From the NCBI GenBank assembly GCA_963726255.1, contig CAVSBL010000002.1, positions 576,001 to 640,000 on the forward strand: DNA of 64,000 nt. Reading direction: 5' to 3'. A model generated the notes under the pieces. It was not told where the DNA came from. It ran no database searches and saw nothing but the letters and a program-made list of their open reading frames with translations. Made by a program: the position numbers and the translations under genes. Shown here in pieces: positions 13,793-21,928 of the stretch (positions are counted from its first letter, which is position 1; every line of letters starts with the position of its first letter). This DNA is from Candidatus Bathyarchaeota archaeon (GTDB lineage Archaea > Thermoproteota > Bathyarchaeia > 40CM-2-53-6).

Positions 13793-15381
13793 CTAGATGA
13801 TCGTCTTGGGATGGAACTCTCCATACTCTTCTCTTATGACATCGCTTATTTCGCCAGTAGTAGCCTTAGACCTCACGGCGTCGAATATCAAAGGTATTAC
13901 GTTGATGTTCCGCTCAAGAGCATTCTGAAGCTTTCTGAGGCTACGAAGCAGCTGAGTTTTCCGACGGTTTCGTCTGAAAGCTTCTGTGCGGGAAATCTGC
14001 CGACGTACTACCAGGGGGAGATCTTATGAATCTTGATTTGATACGGTTTCGGGTCAACATATACGTTGACCCCAACAATTTTGATTGCGCCAGATTCTAT
14101 TCCAATTTGCCTCTTGAAAGCGCTATCGCGAATCTGCTTTTGAATATACCCACTCTGAATCGCTTTAACAGATCCTCCCAGTTTTTCAACTCGACCTATT
14201 TCAGCCCGGGCCTCATTTTCCATCTGGCTCGTGAGGTATTCGAGGTAGTAGCTTCCGCCCAAGGCGTCAACTGTCTTCGTAACACCACTTTCGTGGGCAA
14301 TTATCTGCTGCGTTCGAAGGGCTATTTTCACGGCTTCTTCTGTAGGCAGGGATAACGCTTCGTCAAGGGAATTTGTGTGCAGCGACTGTGTTCCCCCTAA
14401 GACTGCCGCCAGAGCTTGGATGGCTACTCGGACGATGTTATTCTGCGGTTGCTGGGCAGTGAGCGTTTCTCCGCTGGTTTGCGTGTGGAAGCGTAATTTC
14501 ATCGCCTCCGGGTCATTTGCGTGAAATTCCTCTTTCATCATGTGTGCCCATATGCGGCGGGCTGCCCGGAATTTGGCTACTTCTTCTAGGAAATCGTTGT
14601 GGCATGCAAAAAAGAAGGACAGATGCGGCGCGAACTCGTCGATCTTCAACCCGCGTTGGATGCAAGCTCTCACGTACTCCTTTGCGTTCGCAAATGCGTA
14701 AGCGAGTTCTTGGACCGCGCTTGAGCCGCTTTCTCTGATGTGATATCCGCTTATGCTGATCGGGTGCCACATCGGCATTCTCTTGGCGCAAAATTCGATA
14801 ATGTCCACGGACAGCCTCAACGATTGCTCGGGAGGAAAGATGTAGGTATTGCGCGCTATGTACTCCTTGAGGATGTCATTCTGTGTCGTTCCACGCAGTC
14901 GTCCAAGCGGGACTCCCTGCGATGTTCCGACCGATGCGTACATTGCTAACATTATGGCAGCCGTGGCGTTGATGGTCATCGAAGTACTGATCCTTCCAAG
15001 GTCGATTCCCTGGAAGAGTAGTCTCATGTCATTCACAGAACTGATCGGTACTCCTACCCGACCGACTTCTCCTTCAGCCCGAGGGCTGTCGGAATCATAG
15101 CCCAATTGAGTTGGAAGGTCAAAGGCAACGCTAAGCCCCGTTTGTCCTTGTTTAATCAGGAATCTGAAACGCCGATTCGTAGCCTCGGCGCTGCCAAACC
15201 CGGAATATTGCCTCATCGTCCAAAGTCGGGAACGGTACATCTCGGAGTAGATTCCGCGCGTAAAGGGGAATTTCCCCGGTTCGCCCAAATTGCGTTCGAG
15301 GTACCGTGGGTCAGAATCCCTTTGGTCGTAGAACTTTTTCACTGCAAAGCCCGAAGCAGAGAAGATCCTTTCTTCTTTCAA
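13793..15381 (-). CDS. Methylmalonyl-CoA mutase large subunit; one base missing in a homopolymer at 14014-14018
   Basis: PFTRG, TMRQYSGF, QNDILKEYIARNTY, SISGYHIRE, GGTQSLHTN; the C-terminus ...ATTGEISDVIREEYGEFHPKTII* continues in another frame to 13793. Confidence 0.9.
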
Positions 15382-15491: not shown

Positions 15492-17261
15492 GTGGAACAA
15501 ATGCCGCCGAAGAGAAAAATGAATTACTGGGCGAAGAAAGTTGAGCAAATAGTAGCCGCGAGAAAACGACAAGGCCCACTTTACGATCGCAAGCAGCTTC
15601 GTTCGATAGTTGAAAAACAGCGCAAATGGAAAGAAGGCACGCTAAAGAAATGGTTGGCGAAGGCGCCCGAGCGCAAGGAAGAATTCGAGAACCCGTCCGG
15701 AATCCCCCTAAGACGGATATACAGTCCTACGGACGTGTCGTACCAAGCTTATTCCGAGAACGTTGGACTCCCGGGCGAATTTCCATACACCCGCGGGGTC
15801 CACCCAACCATGTACCGGGGCCGGCTATGGACTATGCGAATGTTCTCCGGTTACGGTACTCCCGAGCAAACCAACGCACGACTCAAGTACCTTCTGAAGG
15901 AAGGCGAGACTGGACTGAGCATTGCTTTCGACATGCCGACTTTGTATGGCGTTGACGCAGACCATCCAAGGGCTGAGGGAGAGGTTGGCAAGTGCGGTGT
16001 TTCGGTATCCTCACTTAGAGACATGGAAGTGGTCCTCGATGGCATTCCGCTCGATGAAGTCAGCACTTCAATGACGATCAACGCGCCTGCTTCTGTTCTA
16101 ACCTGTATGTATGTTGCAGCCGCTGATGAACGCGGGATAGCGCCGAAGAAACTGCGCGGCACGGTGCAAACCGACATTCTCAAGGAGTATGCAGCCCAAA
16201 AGGAGTGGGTGTACCCACCCGAAGCTCACCTCAGAATCATCCGCGACATGATTCTGTACTCCACAAAGCACCTCCCACAATGGAACTACGTCAGCGTAAG
16301 CGGATACCATATTCGCGAAGCGGGTTCAAGTGCCCTACAGGAATTGGCTTTCACTTTGGCCGATGGGTTTGCCTACGTTGACCTAGGACTGCAAGCTGGG
16401 TTGAAAGTAGACGATTTCGTCCCCAGGCTATCCTTTTTCTTTAACTGTGGTATGGACTTCTTTGAAGAGATTGCGAAATTTCGGGCTGCCCGACGGGTTT
16501 GGTCTAAAGTTCTCAAAGAAAAATATAATGCGAGAAACCCCAGGTCAACGTTAATGCGGTTTCACACTCAGACCTCAGGCGTGTCTTTGACATGGCAACA
16601 ACCACTCAACAACATTGTAAGAACTACTATTGAGGCCTTAGCCGCAGTTTTGGGCGGAACACAATCATTGCACACGAATGCGTACGATGAGGCATGGGCT
16701 CTACCTACAGAGCAAGCCGCTCTAATTGCCCTGAGAAGCCAACAACTCTTGGCTGAAGAGACCGGGGTTGCTGACGTCATTGACCCCCTCGGTGGATCAT
16801 ACTATGTTGAATGGCTAACGGATGAAATGGAGCAGCGAACATACGAGTATCTTGCAAAAATCGAGGGCCTCGGCGGTATTCTGGCTGCCATCAAGACAGG
16901 TTTCATTCAGAGGGAAATCGCAGATACTTCATACAAGTATCAAAGGCAGATGGAAGAAGGCAAAAGGGTTATTGTGGGAGTTAACGCCCACCAAATGAAT
17001 GAAGCATCTCCTATTGAAACGCTAAGAATCGACGAAAAGATACGCAACAGCCAAGTCGAGAGGTTGAAAGAAGTCAAGAAAAACAGGGATGCTACAGCAG
17101 TGAAAAACTCTTTAGAAGAACTCCGCTTATCTTTCCTGGATCCTGATTCGAACTGCATCTACCCGATGCTTAAGGCCGTAAAATCCTATGCAACATTAGG
17201 AGAAATTGTGGACGTTGGAAGAAGGGTGTTCGGGGACTGGAAGGAGCCCTCGATACTGTGA
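15492..17261 (+). CDS. Acyl-CoA mutase large subunit with isobutyryl-CoA mutase (IcmA)-type specificity residues
   Basis: PYTRG, TMRMFSGY (Phe at the Tyr89-equivalent site), QTDILKEYAAQKEW (Gln at the Arg207-equivalent site), GGTQSLHTN. Confidence 0.88.
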   Translation: MEQMPPKRKMNYWAKKVEQIVAARKRQGPLYDRKQLRSIVEKQRKWKEGTLKKWLAKAPERKEEFENPSGIPLRRIYSPTDVSYQAYSENVGLPGEFPYTRGVHPTMYRGRLWTMRMFSGYGTPEQTNARLKYLLKEGETGLSIAFDMPTLYGVDADHPRAEGEVGKCGVSVSSLRDMEVVLDGIPLDEVSTSMTINAPASVLTCMYVAAADERGIAPKKLRGTVQTDILKEYAAQKEWVYPPEAHLRIIRDMILYSTKHLPQWNYVSVSGYHIREAGSSALQELAFTLADGFAYVDLGLQAGLKVDDFVPRLSFFFNCGMDFFEEIAKFRAARRVWSKVLKEKYNARNPRSTLMRFHTQTSGVSLTWQQPLNNIVRTTIEALAAVLGGTQSLHTNAYDEAWALPTEQAALIALRSQQLLAEETGVADVIDPLGGSYYVEWLTDEMEQRTYEYLAKIEGLGGILAAIKTGFIQREIADTSYKYQRQMEEGKRVIVGVNAHQMNEASPIETLRIDEKIRNSQVERLKEVKKNRDATAVKNSLEELRLSFLDPDSNCIYPMLKAVKSYATLGEIVDVGRRVFGDWKEPSIL

Positions 17262-17293
17262 AGTTTGGAGGTGGGACAATCTCGACAACACGG

Positions 17294-17736
17294 TTGACGA
17301 CCAAGAAAATTCAGCAGAGAAAGATTAGGGTGCTTGTGGCAAAGCCCGGGCTCGTGTGAATCAACGGCTAAACGGGCATGACCGTGGCGCCCTCGTCTTG
17401 TGTAGGGCCCTCCGAGATGCTGGTATGGAGGTCATCTACGCCGGACTCTTAGCCGGCCCAGAGCAAGTTGCTCAAATGGCCATAGACGAAGACGTTGACG
17501 TTGTTGCGATGAGCTTGCTCAACGGCGCACACATGACCGCCTTCCCGAAGGTCGCAAAGGCACTCAAGGAACATCAGGCAGGCGACATCCTGCTTGTAGG
17601 GGGCGGCATTATCCCTGAAGAGGATAAACCGAAACTCGAGAGATTGGGTATAACGGGGAATTTCGGCCCAGGCACCTCTCTGCAGACGATCATCAATCAC
17701 ATAGTAGGACGCGTTCGGAAGGAACGTTGGAAGTAG
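17294..17736 (+). CDS. Cobalamin-binding small subunit of acyl-CoA mutase; two exons (17294-17354 and 17372-17736), about 141 aa
   Basis: Spliced KIRVLVAKPGLDGHDRGA (DxHxxG), LRDAGMEVIY, SLLNGAH, GGGIIP, FGPGT; TTG start is inferred. Confidence 0.9.
17355..17371 (+). other. Putative 17-nt BHB pre-mRNA intron in the B12-binding subunit gene
   Basis: GCCCG-GGCU-CG^U-GUGAAUCAAC-GGCU-AA^A-CGGGC; removal gives CTC GAC GGG CAT (L-D-G-H). Confidence 0.87.
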
Positions 17737-18089
17737 CCGTTCTATTTAGCCCGTCAGCTTACCTTTTCGAGATGTTCAAATTCTAGCATGGAGCCAGTTC
17801 GATTTGATTTTTTGTTTGAAAACCACGTGCACTTCGTCGCCTACGGCGACTTGACCCTTTGTCTTGTGAACTATGCCGCCATGGGAGGGAAAACGGACCA
17901 GCGCGACTGTGACTGGTTCTGAGAGATTCGGATATGAGGGTATCTTTGAACGCTTTTCAGGTCTCGAGACAATCTCTTCCTGCGTAACCTCACGACTTCA
18001 ACGAGGTTCTGATAACTGGACAATAATCTTCATTATTGGCAACTAGCATTCGCAATGCGAACGCGCAGGGATTCGAGGATCAATTTAGA

Positions 18090-19262
18090 ATGACAGAACC
18101 TCTTGCTAGTATTGTTTCAGCGGGTGTTTCGAAGTTCGGTGTTCGCGAAGGGCTGTATAGCAGAGAGCTCTTCGCCGAGGCCGCGAGAGAAGCGTTCGAT
18201 GCTTGCCCCAAACTCGATCCCAAACGGGACATCCAAGCCCTCTTCGTTGGGATGATGAGCGAATCCTACGAACACCAAGCCCATGTCGCTCCCCTGCTCT
18301 TAGATTGGATTGGTTTGCTCCCGAATCCCGCTTTCAGAACGGAGGGGGCATGCGCATCCTCAAGCATCGCAATGCGAACTGCATTGTTTGCTATCGTCTC
18401 TGGCCTATACGAGGTGGTCCTTGTGGGGGGCGTAGAGAAGATGACCCATGTCAGCACCACCGGAGTAACTGAGATTCTAGCAATGGCATCAGACTTCCCC
18501 TTCGAACAGTGGCACGGAATCTCCTTTCCTGGTATCTTCGGTATGATGGCGGTAGACCACATGAACCGGTATGGGACCACAGAGGAACAGATGGCTAAGG
18601 TTGCGGTAAAGAATCATGAACACGGAGTCCTCAATCCGAAGGCGCATTTCCAAAAGCGCATAACAGTTGACGAAGTTCTATCATCGCGCCCCGTTGCGTG
18701 GCCCCTGAAACTGTACGATTGCTGCCCCCGATCGGATGGTGCCAGTTGCCTAGTACTTACCTCGCCTAAGATTGCGAGAAAATTCACTGATGCACCCGTG
18801 AACATAATTGGTTCAGGGCAAGCTCAGGACACGCTCGCTCTTTGCCAACGAGAGAATTTTAGCAGTATGAAGGTCACTAAGCTTGCGGCCCAACAAGCAT
18901 ACAAAATGGCCAAAGTCGGGCCGAGCGACATTGACGTGGCCGAATTACACGATTGCTTTACGATTGCGGAGATCATTGCCTACGAAGACTTGGGCTTCTG
19001 CGATCAAGGGAAGGGTGGAAAACTAATCGACGAAGGGGCAACCTACCTGGGGGGGAAGATTCCGGCGAATACTAGCGGGGGACTCAAAGCGAAGGGCCAT
19101 CCCGTCGGGGCGACAGGGACGGCACAAGCGTGTGAGATCTACTTCCAATTAACCAACCAGGCGGGGCGAAGGCAGGTTGCCGGAGCAGAAATTGGGCTCA
19201 CGGAGAACGTTGGTGGGTCAGCCTCAACCGGGGTTGTCCACATCTACAAACGTGGAGACTGA
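18090..19262 (+). CDS. Thiolase, archaeal/SCP2 type
   Basis: EGACASS, GVEKMT, ELHDCFTIAE, NTSGGLKAKGHPVGATG. Confidence 0.93.
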   Translation: MTEPLASIVSAGVSKFGVREGLYSRELFAEAAREAFDACPKLDPKRDIQALFVGMMSESYEHQAHVAPLLLDWIGLLPNPAFRTEGACASSSIAMRTALFAIVSGLYEVVLVGGVEKMTHVSTTGVTEILAMASDFPFEQWHGISFPGIFGMMAVDHMNRYGTTEEQMAKVAVKNHEHGVLNPKAHFQKRITVDEVLSSRPVAWPLKLYDCCPRSDGASCLVLTSPKIARKFTDAPVNIIGSGQAQDTLALCQRENFSSMKVTKLAAQQAYKMAKVGPSDIDVAELHDCFTIAEIIAYEDLGFCDQGKGGKLIDEGATYLGGKIPANTSGGLKAKGHPVGATGTAQACEIYFQLTNQAGRRQVAGAEIGLTENVGGSASTGVVHIYKRGD

Positions 19263-19276
19263 AGGAGACAGAAGAG

Positions 19277-19731
19277 ATGGGAGCATCAATAATGAAAACG
19301 CCCACCGAAAAACCTGGTTTCGTTCGGGACGAGAACGGATTCATAATGCCGACCGTAGAGAACTTCTACAAGTATTGTGGCGAACGGAAGCTCATGGGCG
19401 TCAAATGCAAGGGATGTGGTGAAATCCTTTGGCCCCCTCCGGCATATGCCCGAAATGTTTCTCTTACAAAGTTGAGTGGACGGAATTCAAGGGTAAGGGA
19501 AAGCTTCTAACATACACAATCATTCACTTTCCGCCAAGCCAATTCGTGGCGCTCGCCCCATACGCCGTTGGCATACTCAAGTTGGAAGAGGGCCCTCAGC
19601 TGCCGGGCATGATAAAGAACCTCAAGCTAGAAGACCTGCGGATTGGAATGAACCTTGAGGTCGATTTCGAAGGTTCCGTCCCTAAGGAATGGCCTCGTTG
19701 GCCGCGCTATTTCTTCAAGCCGGTGAGTTAG
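19277..19731 (+). CDS. Zn-ribbon/OB-fold DUF35 (ChsH2-like) thiolase partner; one base missing in the C-run 19433-19437
   Basis: KCKGCG...WPP in one frame; GICPKC...GKLLTYTII...PYAVG in the next. Confidence 0.88.
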
Positions 19732-19836
19732 ATCTACGCTGGGGATCGAAAAACATTATTCCTAATGGAATAATTCGAGGCCTAGAATATTAATGAAGGA
19801 ATATACCGGGCTGGAGGAATCTAACGCATTCACAGT

Positions 19837-20796
19837 GTGGTACTCGTGGTAGAAGCGGAGCTAACAGGGGTTTTCCCGCGTTCCGAGAAACTCGTAGAGG
19901 CAACACGGGCTGTGGCGCGCGGAAAAATCTCACAATCCGAGGTTGATGCGATCTCCGCCGAAGATACGAAATCGCTTGTTGAACTGGAGAAGGCCACATC
20001 CTTGGACGCCTTCGTAGACGGACAGTTGAACTGGCAAGACCTATTCAGACCCTTTTCAGAGTTGTTCACCGGCATTCACCCGGGCGCCCTGACCAGGTGG
20101 TTCGACAACAACACTTTCTACCGGAAACCAGTAATCGTTGAGAAAGTAACGTTTCGTGGCTCAAGAATAGATGAGTTCTTCCGCCATGACATGCTACCAA
20201 CCAACGCCCGTAAGAAAGCCATTCTTCCCGGGCCCTTTACGTTCGCGGCACTAGCAGAAAACTCCGCCTACCCGTCGCTCGTGGACCTTGCAGATGACCT
20301 CGCGCATGCCCTGCGAGAAACCGTGGCCAGCTTGCAGAGATCTGGTTACACTTACTTCCAATTCAATGAACCCGCTCTCGCTGCGGGCGGCGCAACGAAA
20401 CACTATCTCGAAGTCGCGAAACATGCATTCGAGGTTTGTGCAAGAGGCGTGGCGGGGCAAACCATGCTGCAAACATACTTCGGCGACGTCGAGCCTGTGA
20501 TTGACGACCTGTTAGATTATCCGGTGAACTGCATCGGGTTGGACTTCTATGCAACATCAATCGACTCACTGGCTCAGCATGATTTCAATAAAGCACTAGG
20601 GTGCGGCTGCGTCGACGGAAGAAACTCATTGCTTGAAACGGCAACCGATCTCAGCAAGTTTGTAGCAGAGGTCAAGAAACGGTTAGACCCTAAGGGCATA
20701 CGCCTTGGTCCTAACTGTGACTTAGACTTCCTCCCCGAAGTCGTGGCCGAGAAGAAGGTACGCCTTCTAGGCGAAACGGCAAAGTTGGTAACCTGA
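19837..20796 (+). CDS. Split cobalamin-independent methionine synthase, N-terminal-like half
   Basis: GVFPRSE, DGQLNWQD, RWFDNNTFYRKP, LPGPFT, GCVDGRN; Zn-ligand set incomplete. Confidence 0.8.
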   Translation: MVLVVEAELTGVFPRSEKLVEATRAVARGKISQSEVDAISAEDTKSLVELEKATSLDAFVDGQLNWQDLFRPFSELFTGIHPGALTRWFDNNTFYRKPVIVEKVTFRGSRIDEFFRHDMLPTNARKKAILPGPFTFAALAENSAYPSLVDLADDLAHALRETVASLQRSGYTYFQFNEPALAAGGATKHYLEVAKHAFEVCARGVAGQTMLQTYFGDVEPVIDDLLDYPVNCIGLDFYATSIDSLAQHDFNKALGCGCVDGRNSLLETATDLSKFVAEVKKRLDPKGIRLGPNCDLDFLPEVVAEKKVRLLGETAKLVT

Positions 20797-20797
20797 C

Positions 20798-21928
20798 TTG
20801 GGCAGCAGCCTATTCCCAGTGCAGGAAATTGGAAGCCTGCCGAAAGCCCCTTGGCTAATTGCATACCTGCGCGGAAGGAAATTTGAGCAATCCGATTTTG
20901 ACCATTTATCAAAGTGGTCAAAGATTACCGGGTTCGAAGGCGCAGAAGATGCCAAGTCTGTCCTCTCGCTTGCGAAGGCTCCTGAAACCGAAGAGCGAAT
21001 CAGACAACTAGCTTCATTGTTCGGCATCAGGTTTCTCGAATCCGCAGGCCTAGAGTACGTCTACGATGGTGAAGCAAATCGGATCGAAATGTATGAACAC
21101 CCGGTTAGGAACTCAGATGGATTCACATTTTACGGACACGTAAGATCCTTCGATAATAGATACTACAGAAAGGCCGCTTGCATACGTAAAGTAGGATTCC
21201 GAGAACCATACCACTTGAAAGAATTCGATTTTGTGAAACAGCATGCAAAACGGAAAATAAAAGTCCCCATTACCGGACCGTACACAATAGCAGAATGGTC
21301 CTTCAACGAATACTATCAAAAACAACTTGCGAAAAAATATGCGGACCCGCGGCAGCTTAAGTTTGAAGCAAAAAGAGAGTTTGTACTCGACATAGCGAAG
21401 GAAATCATACGGCCGAACCTTCAAGGCCTTGTCGAGGCGGGCGCAGAATGGATCCAAATAGACGAGCCGGCACTCACTACCAAGCCTGCGGAGGTGCCAT
21501 TCTTCGTTGAAGCGTTCAACGAATGCACAGAGGGGATTCAGTGCAAGTTCAGCGTACACGTTTGCTACAGCGACTACAGCCTACTCTACCCATACGTCAT
21601 GGAGCTAAAGAACTGTAGCCAGCTGGCCTTGGAATTCGCCAACCGCGACTACGGCAAAAGAGAAGCGTACGACCAACTCAAGCTCCTCAAGCAGTACGGC
21701 GACGAGAGAGAAATCGGTTTAGGAGTTGCCGACGTGCACATTGATGAGGTTGAAAGCCCCATACTTGTCCGAGACAGAATAGAATACGCGACCAAGATTC
21801 TCGGAGACCCGGGAAAAATCTACGTAAACCCGGATTGTGGCCTGCGAACACGGTCGTGGGACGTAGCGTACGCGAAACTCTGCAATATTGTAAAGGGCGC
21901 CGAGTTGGCAAAGCAATCCATGAGCTGA
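20798..21928 (+). CDS. metE: Split cobalamin-independent methionine synthase, catalytic half
   Basis: EIGSLPK, PITGPYT, IQIDEPA, Zn ligands HVC...E...NPDCGLRT. Confidence 0.87.
   Translation: MGSSLFPVQEIGSLPKAPWLIAYLRGRKFEQSDFDHLSKWSKITGFEGAEDAKSVLSLAKAPETEERIRQLASLFGIRFLESAGLEYVYDGEANRIEMYEHPVRNSDGFTFYGHVRSFDNRYYRKAACIRKVGFREPYHLKEFDFVKQHAKRKIKVPITGPYTIAEWSFNEYYQKQLAKKYADPRQLKFEAKREFVLDIAKEIIRPNLQGLVEAGAEWIQIDEPALTTKPAEVPFFVEAFNECTEGIQCKFSVHVCYSDYSLLYPYVMELKNCSQLALEFANRDYGKREAYDQLKLLKQYGDEREIGLGVADVHIDEVESPILVRDRIEYATKILGDPGKIYVNPDCGLRTRSWDVAYAKLCNIVKGAELAKQSMS

Follow-up and report, generated by a model that had tools for sequence, protein, structure and literature searches.

The window analysed here, a 64,000-nucleotide stretch of contig CAVSBL010000002.1 from a Candidatus Bathyarchaeota archaeon, carries a gene for the cobalamin (B12)-binding small subunit of a methylmalonyl-CoA-mutase-type enzyme that is interrupted by 17 nt at positions 17355-17371. 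To judge from its sequence in this genome (G000) and in relatives, the insert is very probably a bulge-helix-bulge (BHB) pre-mRNA intron of the hBHBh′ form (outer helix h, central helix H between two bulges, inner helix h′). The large (catalytic) subunit of the mutase (15492-17261, + strand, 589 aa) matches Pfam MM_CoA_mutase with an E-value of 1.4e-218 and lies directly 5′ of exon 1 with a 4-nt overlap, the putative GTG start of exon 1 and the TGA that ends the large subunit sharing GTGA. Exon 1 (17258-17354, +) encodes 32 aa ending in KIRVLVAKPGL, followed by the G of an Asp codon, whilst exon 2 (17372-17736, +) supplies the last two bases of that codon and continues with GHDRG for 120 aa to a stop, and the putative intron between them (17355-17371, +), U GUGAAUCAAC GGCU AA, contains an in-frame TGA at 17357-17359. 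In the list of open-reading frames (ORFs) the gene appears as two frames, one of 33 aa at 17258-17359 that ends in KIRVLVAKPGLV and a stop, the other of 126 aa at 17356-17736 in a different frame, which includes NGHDRGA and in which GHDRGALVL begins at 17374.

Exon 2 is a Pfam B12-binding domain (PF02310) aligned over profile positions 12-115 of 121 (E-value 1.5e-20; 73.7 bits against a cut-off of 32.1), with MM_CoA_mutase directly upstream, and it also aligns with residues 28-138 of the small subunit structure PDB 4r3u_C and matches PDB 2yxb_A. Missing from exon 2 are the Asp of the DxHxxG motif and ~11 positions at the start of the profile, which lie in the upstream ORF. The DxHxxG motif is not contiguous in the DNA, its Asp codon being divided into G and AC by the 17 nt, and it becomes whole only after the proposed excision: deletion of 17355-17371 gives CTC G/AC GGG, that is Leu-Asp-Gly within KPGLDGHDRG, and joins 97 and 362 nt into 153 codons. 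The small-subunit gene adjoins two MM_CoA_mutase catalytic genes and is the only match to PF02310 in the genome (12 candidates scored; completeness 98.5%).

The BHB is described (PMC5829648) as two 3-nt bulges on opposite strands with a 4-bp helix between them, located at exon-intron borders. At the insert, the 5′ strand of the outer helix is GCCCG of exon 1 (17344-17348, +), which pairs with CGGGC of exon 2 (17373-17377, +), and the 5′ strand of the 4-bp central helix is GGCU of exon 1 (17349-17352, +), which pairs with GGCU of the intron (17366-17369, +). The inner helix, GU/AC (2 bp) with a 6-nt loop, GTGAATCAAC, occupies 17356-17365 (+). Cuts were placed between the second and third base of each bulge, which predicts cleavage at 17354/17355 in the 5′ bulge CGU (17353-17355, +) and at 17371/17372 in the 3′ bulge AAA (17370-17372, +). 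These pairings were read from the sequence and from an alignment of 15 insert-bearing sequences (13 from the genus, two from metagenomes, see below), all 15 of which have the two opposed bulges, the 4-bp helix between them and both flanking helices; the 3′ bulge is AAA in 12, and AUA, UAA and AGA in one each. The layout, a strand of the central helix and then a bulge on both strands, is that found at tRNA position 37/38. Strict BHBs (3-bp outer, 4-bp central and 2-bp inner helix, GU pairs allowed) occur at ~25,282 combinations of position and length per strand over 2.36 Mb and 69 lengths, or ~1.6e-4 per position and length, and the BHB here falls in the one register that restores the Asp codon. 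An earlier note on this DNA, made from the sequence alone, had described the same motif, and its helices, bulges and coordinates match ours base for base.

Within the genus (23 genomes) an ortholog was found in 15, and 13 of these carry an insert at exactly the same site, with lengths of 16 nt (two genomes), 17 nt (eight), 18 nt (two) and 23 nt (one). At least two further carriers, L136 and L153, are present among metagenome contigs, with inserts of 15 and 19 nt and an exon 2 that is 72% and 81% identical; among the 80 metagenome loci listed by a pattern scan, these two were the genuine carriers, found with the border signature, whilst 52 were contiguous orthologs with no gap, mostly ~50% identical. 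The 26 gapped matches among those listed were rejected as chance, with unrelated frames. All non-carrier orthologs examined are contiguous, namely two in the genus, two from other genera of the family (G023 and G024), four of four at the order level and 80 of 80 in the genome collection. Canonical excision in silico yields KPGLDGHDRG in a stop-free open frame in all 13 genus carriers (153 codons here), and the same register restores LDGHDRG in L136 and L153. The earlier note had argued that the insert was no sequencing error and had proposed the comparison of orthologs reported here, which agrees with it: the insert recurs in 12 other species assemblies, two metagenome contigs and a contig from an RNA library, and 13 independent species assemblies with the insert therefore exclude a sequencing artefact.

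Two of these loci have features of their own. The L136 insert (2499-2539, - strand; 15 nt) is in frame and free of stops, so that reading through it would give KPGL-VHAQPN-GHDRG, which has no Asp; its BHB fold is nevertheless kept, and the single compensatory C-G pair of the alignment lies in its inner helix. In L020 (G024:C103), an ortholog from a different genus in the family, Asn replaces the Asp of DxHxxG (KPGLNGHDRG); the contig is truncated, and the gene may be a paralog or a variant.

The pairing is conserved across all carriers. In the 15-sequence alignment, 97% of 165 pair cells are standard pairs, a figure that drops to 19-36% when the partner strand is shifted along. Pairing holds in 60 of 60 cells of the central helix, which changes only between GC and GU and between UG and UA, in 30 of 30 cells of the inner helix, including one double change from U-A to C-G (L136), and in 93% of cells of the outer helix, which is 3-5 bp long. 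In the 23-nt intron of G020 the inner helix grows to 5 bp (GUAAG/CUUAC), and the loop otherwise drifts freely in sequence and length across carriers. RNAalifold returned the same helices and both 3-nt bulges from the alignment alone. Three of the four strands in the helices also serve as codons and so cannot vary at will, and in the 13 carriers of the genus their paired synonymous sites are frozen: Pro is CCC and Gly is GGG in 13 of 13, Asp is GAC in 13 of 13, and the next Gly is GGG in 12 of 13. The unpaired third base of the Leu codon, which is the first base of the bulge, is C, A or T, the flanking codons vary, and up to four codons are in use at nearby four-fold sites. Of 88 intronless orthologs, four have CCC-GGG and none has the full CCCGGGCT..ACGGG signature; L136 and L153 stand outside this count, having been found by that signature.

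At the protein level the exon 1 sequence IRVLVAKPGL is constant across the 13 species, with free synonymous change, and dN/dS has a median of 0.04 and a maximum of 0.11 (pairs with usable dS among 78; dS was saturated in over half). Comparison of these sequences indicates that both exons are under purifying selection. This bears on whether the gene is a decaying pseudogene or an assembly artefact with a chance likeness to a BHB, a reading that we consider scarcely credible and that the comparative data already contradict. In its favour, the neighbouring mutase paralog has lost 1 nt, so that the assembly has one or more plain frameshifts, and the RNA-library contig is unspliced; however, the insert is found in 13 independent species assemblies and two metagenome contigs, dN/dS is 0.04 for the sequence to either side, exon 1 preserves a frame that is useful only when joined, and the pairing register stays constant while the loop changes in sequence and length. 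The earlier note had named two signs of a pseudogene, an intact paralog elsewhere and relaxed selection here; there is no second B12-binding domain in the genome, and the median ratio among these orthologs gives no sign of relaxation.

That neighbouring paralog, a second MM_CoA_mutase gene (window 13793-15381, - strand), offers a contrast. It encodes 457 aa, matching Pfam profile positions 3-449 of 512, and is cut short near 14008-14023, with its last 76 aa continuing in another frame. Compared with a 97%-identical relative (G021, open frame of 562 aa), it is one base short beside a run of five C. No strict BHB fuses the two frames, and a BHB intron was rejected there in favour of the 1-nt deletion. 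With a single lost base, an intact relative and no BHB, the gene has the look of an ordinary error or a fresh pseudogene, and on the sequence its break is best read as a plain frameshift, from either an assembly error or a recent pseudogene.

In 14 of the 15 lineages a stop (TAA, TGA or TAG) occupies intron bases 3-5 in the frame of exon 1, one codon past the 5′ cut. This stop may act as a safeguard should the mRNA stay unspliced, or it may simply follow from the GU stem and the purine-rich loop. It also recalls translational recoding, in which the ribosome would frameshift or hop over the insert with no RNA splicing, as in phage T4 gene 60. Known bypass sites have a stop directly after the take-off region, as does this one, where take-off from Leu CTC and a possible landing on CTA at 17368-17370, followed by AAC GGG, would yield KPGL-N-GHDRG in G000, and L020 natively has Asn at that place. 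Frameshifting fails because the insert lengths of 15, 16, 17, 18, 19 and 23 nt span all three residues modulo 3, and a hop fails because the landing codon is Leu (CTA) in only three of the 15 sequences, being CCA in 11 and CCT in one. Neither a constant change of frame nor matched take-off and landing codons were found in the relatives. A hop would moreover lose the Asp that 87 of 88 contiguous orthologs retain, and it leaves the frozen pairing bases beside a free bulge base unexplained; we regard recoding as very improbable. Another rival is a split protein, in which an N-terminal peptide of 33-34 aa and a separately initiated C-terminal fragment would assemble noncovalently. G000 has an in-frame GTG at 17356, from which the 126-aa ORF is called, but an ATG, GTG or TTG between the previous stop and GHDRG is found in only two of the 15 lineages (G000 and L136). 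Such an arrangement would also lose the Asp, as its codon is split across the insert, and among the 92 contiguous orthologs examined no relative has the two parts as separate genes, which leaves the split protein with a probability that we put near zero and no higher than that of a pseudogene.

Excision by splicing, the reading that we prefer, requires enzymes, and these are encoded in the genome. There are two tRNA_int_endo (PF01974) paralogs of 187-188 aa (G000:C2:748279-748530 and C2:1451759-1451998), the tRNA-splicing endonuclease EndA, and a single gene for the ligase RtcB (PF01139; C2:1172995-1174305; E-value 8.5e-172). The best PDB matches of the EndA paralogs are the tRNA-splicing endonuclease chains 3p1z_B and 3ajv_B, which we take to come from the Aeropyrum heterotetramer. 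One paralog aligns over its full length to 3p1z_B with 143 bits (also to 3ajv_B), including the FAIYEHGPGIDHAPF Tyr/His stretch and the aligned loop region, whilst the other is divergent and has no such His context. Their sequences fit the two-subunit (alpha-beta)2, crenarchaeal-type EndA of TACK archaea. This form was reportedly tied by Yoshinari, in 2006, to splicing of the cbf5 pre-mRNA. Relaxed and non-tRNA substrates are linked to (alpha-beta)2 EndA in the account given in PMC5829648.

The tRNA genes give an internal standard for the motif. Two tRNA introns, 15 and 18 nt long, are strict hBHBh′ structures, their outer, central and inner helices measuring 5, 4 and 2 bp and their 3′ bulge being AAA or AAC; the short inner helix of the mutase insert equals theirs. 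Applying the same cut rule to their printed sequences gave 7-nt anticodon loops, CU-GAU-AA and CU-CAC-AC, and the rule used here therefore makes correct tRNAs in this organism. The canonical cuts proposed in the earlier note, together with the PGLDGHDRG that they restore in silico, hold up here. The two tRNA genes (C2:103018-103110 and C2:1225067-1225161 (-)) were both called tRNA-Ser by aragorn, and after excision they are Ile(GAU) and Val(CAC). Most introns called by aragorn do not match a strict BHB in position, and its isotype labels were rejected as unreliable. The genome has 18 Rfam tRNA matches, and of the 17 over the cut-off 15 are 90-126 nt long; the tRNA gene set is heavily interrupted and under-detected.

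Several results weigh against the insert being a spliced intron. As a single sequence the hairpin folds unexceptionally (z = -1.34, with 25 of 200 shuffles equally stable), its inner helix measures just 2-3 bp in 14 of the 15 sequences, and covariation is statistically weak: a double change occurs once, and the observed score is reached by 91 of 500 shuffles. With the lone hairpin unremarkable, the weight of the case rests on comparison. A genome-wide screen for ORFs fused by a BHB found no excess of the true geometry over decoy geometries. The looser version (3-bp outer helix, lengths 12-80 nt, + strand) gave 1300 true candidates compared with 1197-1331 for nine decoy bulge geometries, and the stricter version (4-bp outer helix, lengths 12-45 nt, coding-score filter) gave 19 (11 + 8) compared with 21-34 for six decoys; the 19 look like chance and were set aside. 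The screen was low-powered, because its strict version lost the mutase site itself at the coding-score threshold, its ORFs having qualified; having found no excess, it gives no sign of common mRNA splicing in this organism. Nor is cbf5 interrupted in this genome, its TruB_N matches (C2:296573-296866) lying in one open frame of 260 aa; by location the insert is no cbf5-type intron, as it interrupts another gene.

RNA adds a further point on that side. The data are Logan contigs from one nanopore metatranscriptome run, from a related strain of 95-99% identity, with no cover at 17668-17900. A 229-nt contig (depth 3.5) spans 17233-17461 with 0 gaps, which makes it unspliced, with the 17 nt retained, and no spliced joint is listed in that single RNA-library run, the contigs of which drop minor forms. 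The unspliced contig may be pre-mRNA or DNA carry-over, and it neither proves nor excludes splicing. Of the spliced mRNA intron claimed in the earlier note, the motif and its conservation thus stand, whilst splicing itself, with the sole RNA contig keeping the 17 nt, is strongly suggested rather than seen. An unspliced form would also be expected if EndA cut the BHB with no efficient religation, in which case cleavage would serve mainly to switch off the small-subunit mRNA or mark it for degradation, or if splicing were conditional. Translation of unspliced mRNA would end harmlessly at the stop that 14 of the 15 keep close behind the 5′ cut, and EndA processing of a BHB in the 5′ untranslated region (UTR) is described as affecting expression of Haloferax HVO_1309 (PMC7714728). 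Productive joining is nevertheless needed at some level, because both exons are selected and are the sole source of the B12-binding subunit; such a switch seems to us improbable, somewhat less so than recoding, and it is a refinement of splicing at the BHB and does not exclude it.

We infer cleavage, ligation and their efficiency from the anatomy of the site, its conservation, the selection on exons and pairing bases, and the presence of both enzymes. In the transcript, GCCCG and CGGGC of the exons would pair as the outer helix and GGCU of the exon would form the 4-bp central helix with GGCU of the intron, leaving CGU and AAA to bulge on opposite strands and GU/AC to close the intron loop. In each bulge the two-subunit EndA would cut between the second and third base. 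Ligation of the exons by RtcB would then remake the GAC codon, so that the 153-aa product would have its DxHxxG loop whole; the predicted peptide of the spliced form is VLVAKPGLDGHDR. On unspliced mRNA, translation would end one codon into the intron and yield only a short peptide.

The distribution of the insert among relatives suggests an old intron with precise losses. The two genus members with no intron group as a single clade in a locus tree (100/100), which does not resolve where that clade belongs. A small-subunit tree (120 columns) places the 15 carriers and seven intronless rows in one clade (97/99) and needs three changes, such as a single gain with two losses, which would mean at least two losses or the equivalent. 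It puts five of the intronless rows (L011, L013, L032, L033 and L178) within the genus, a placement that we do not rely on because the columns are so few. On this pattern the intron would have been gained once, in the ancestor of a family-level clade, and lost precisely at least twice. One of the five, L178 (4812-4837, - strand; intronless, 71% identical), keeps the helix codons CCC GGG CTC GAC GGG C (CCCGGGCTCGACGGGC), which is, speculatively, what a recent precise loss would leave.

A BHB intron was reportedly described in the crenarchaeal cbf5 (pseudouridine synthase) pre-mRNA by Watanabe in 2002 and by Yoshinari in 2006. The mutase intron differs from it in its host gene, a metabolic B12-binding subunit and not an RNA-modification enzyme, and in that cbf5 splicing was shown by experiment, whereas splicing here is predicted from sequence. 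The two are alike in being tRNA-type BHB introns within an ORF, in hosts with a hetero-oligomeric EndA, of a size in the range of tRNA introns and with patchy gain and loss (PMC2738675), the cbf5 intron being described as gained and lost among relatives (Yokobori 2009, PMC2738675). They also differ in lineage: same-order copies of the mutase gene cluster with metagenome-assembled genomes (MAGs) that carry the label Bathyarchaeota, and the named orthologs closest to this gene copy bear the label Thaumarchaeota/Nitrososphaerales. The organism is probably a TACK archaeon from a wetland or soil habitat. A further mRNA comparison comes from Haloferax volcanii, the EndA of which is of a different type from the two-subunit enzyme. 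HVO_1309 of this species, as reported by Schwarz et al. (2020, PMC7714728), likewise presents an mRNA as an EndA substrate outside tRNA and rRNA, but its BHB lies in the untranslated leader and leaves the reading frame uninterrupted. Archaeal tRNA micro-introns, given as hBHBh′ and 11-175 nt long (PMC2738675), share the geometry and size of the mutase intron. Unlike in tRNAs, however, the mutase exons are codons with no mature-domain context, and the exon strands of the helices also encode Pro-Gly-Leu-Asp-Gly. In eukaryotes, HAC1/XBP1 mRNAs carry a recognition motif of paired stem-loops. There, too, an endonuclease and RtcB are described as removing a short intron and changing the mRNA frame with no spliceosome (IRE1/RtcB, PMC13149111), but with another nuclease and motif, under regulation by ER stress and in targets that are not homologous.

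The mutase intron thus probably joins a very small kind, the BHB intron inside a protein reading frame, which in the sources available has been described since 2002 only for cbf5 of Crenarchaeota. PMC7714728 speaks of a BHB motif in one mRNA and, as of 2020, names cbf5 as the sole further BHB intron on record apart from that in the HVO_1309 leader. A search of full-text literature, with subscription journals mostly outside it, returned nothing on this gene with a BHB, on BHB introns of Thaumarchaeota or Bathyarchaeota, or on interrupted protein genes of this sort. A second independent case, in another gene and lineage, would show that recruitment of the tRNA-splicing machinery to mRNAs can happen repeatedly. 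The 15 variants form a natural series in which to see how coding sequence and RNA structure constrain each other, and they offer a tiny (15-23 nt) natural splicing cassette. They are also a warning for annotation, since such genes are called truncated or pseudogenes in MAGs, and miscalling this one would wrongly drop the B12-dependent mutase step from metabolic reconstructions.

A wider proposal is more doubtful and, taken as a whole, rather unlikely. It holds that this is the first BHB intron in the ORF of a metabolic enzyme and the first to interrupt an ORF outside the classical Crenarchaeota, that it is old (family-level, with at least two precise losses), and that it is kept as a gate, making the only cobalamin-binding mutase subunit dependent on tRNA-splicing capacity, with the conserved stop rendering unspliced mRNA harmless. 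If such a gate existed, it would be an archaeal counterpart of regulated frame-switch splicing of the IRE1/XBP1 type.

Downstream of the small-subunit gene (window 18036-21928, +) lie a thiolase-like gene, an OB-fold gene (ChsH2_C/DUF35-type) and two Meth_synt_1/2 genes. The latter are cobalamin-independent methionine-synthase-like, and the whole downstream context is ordinary for archaea.

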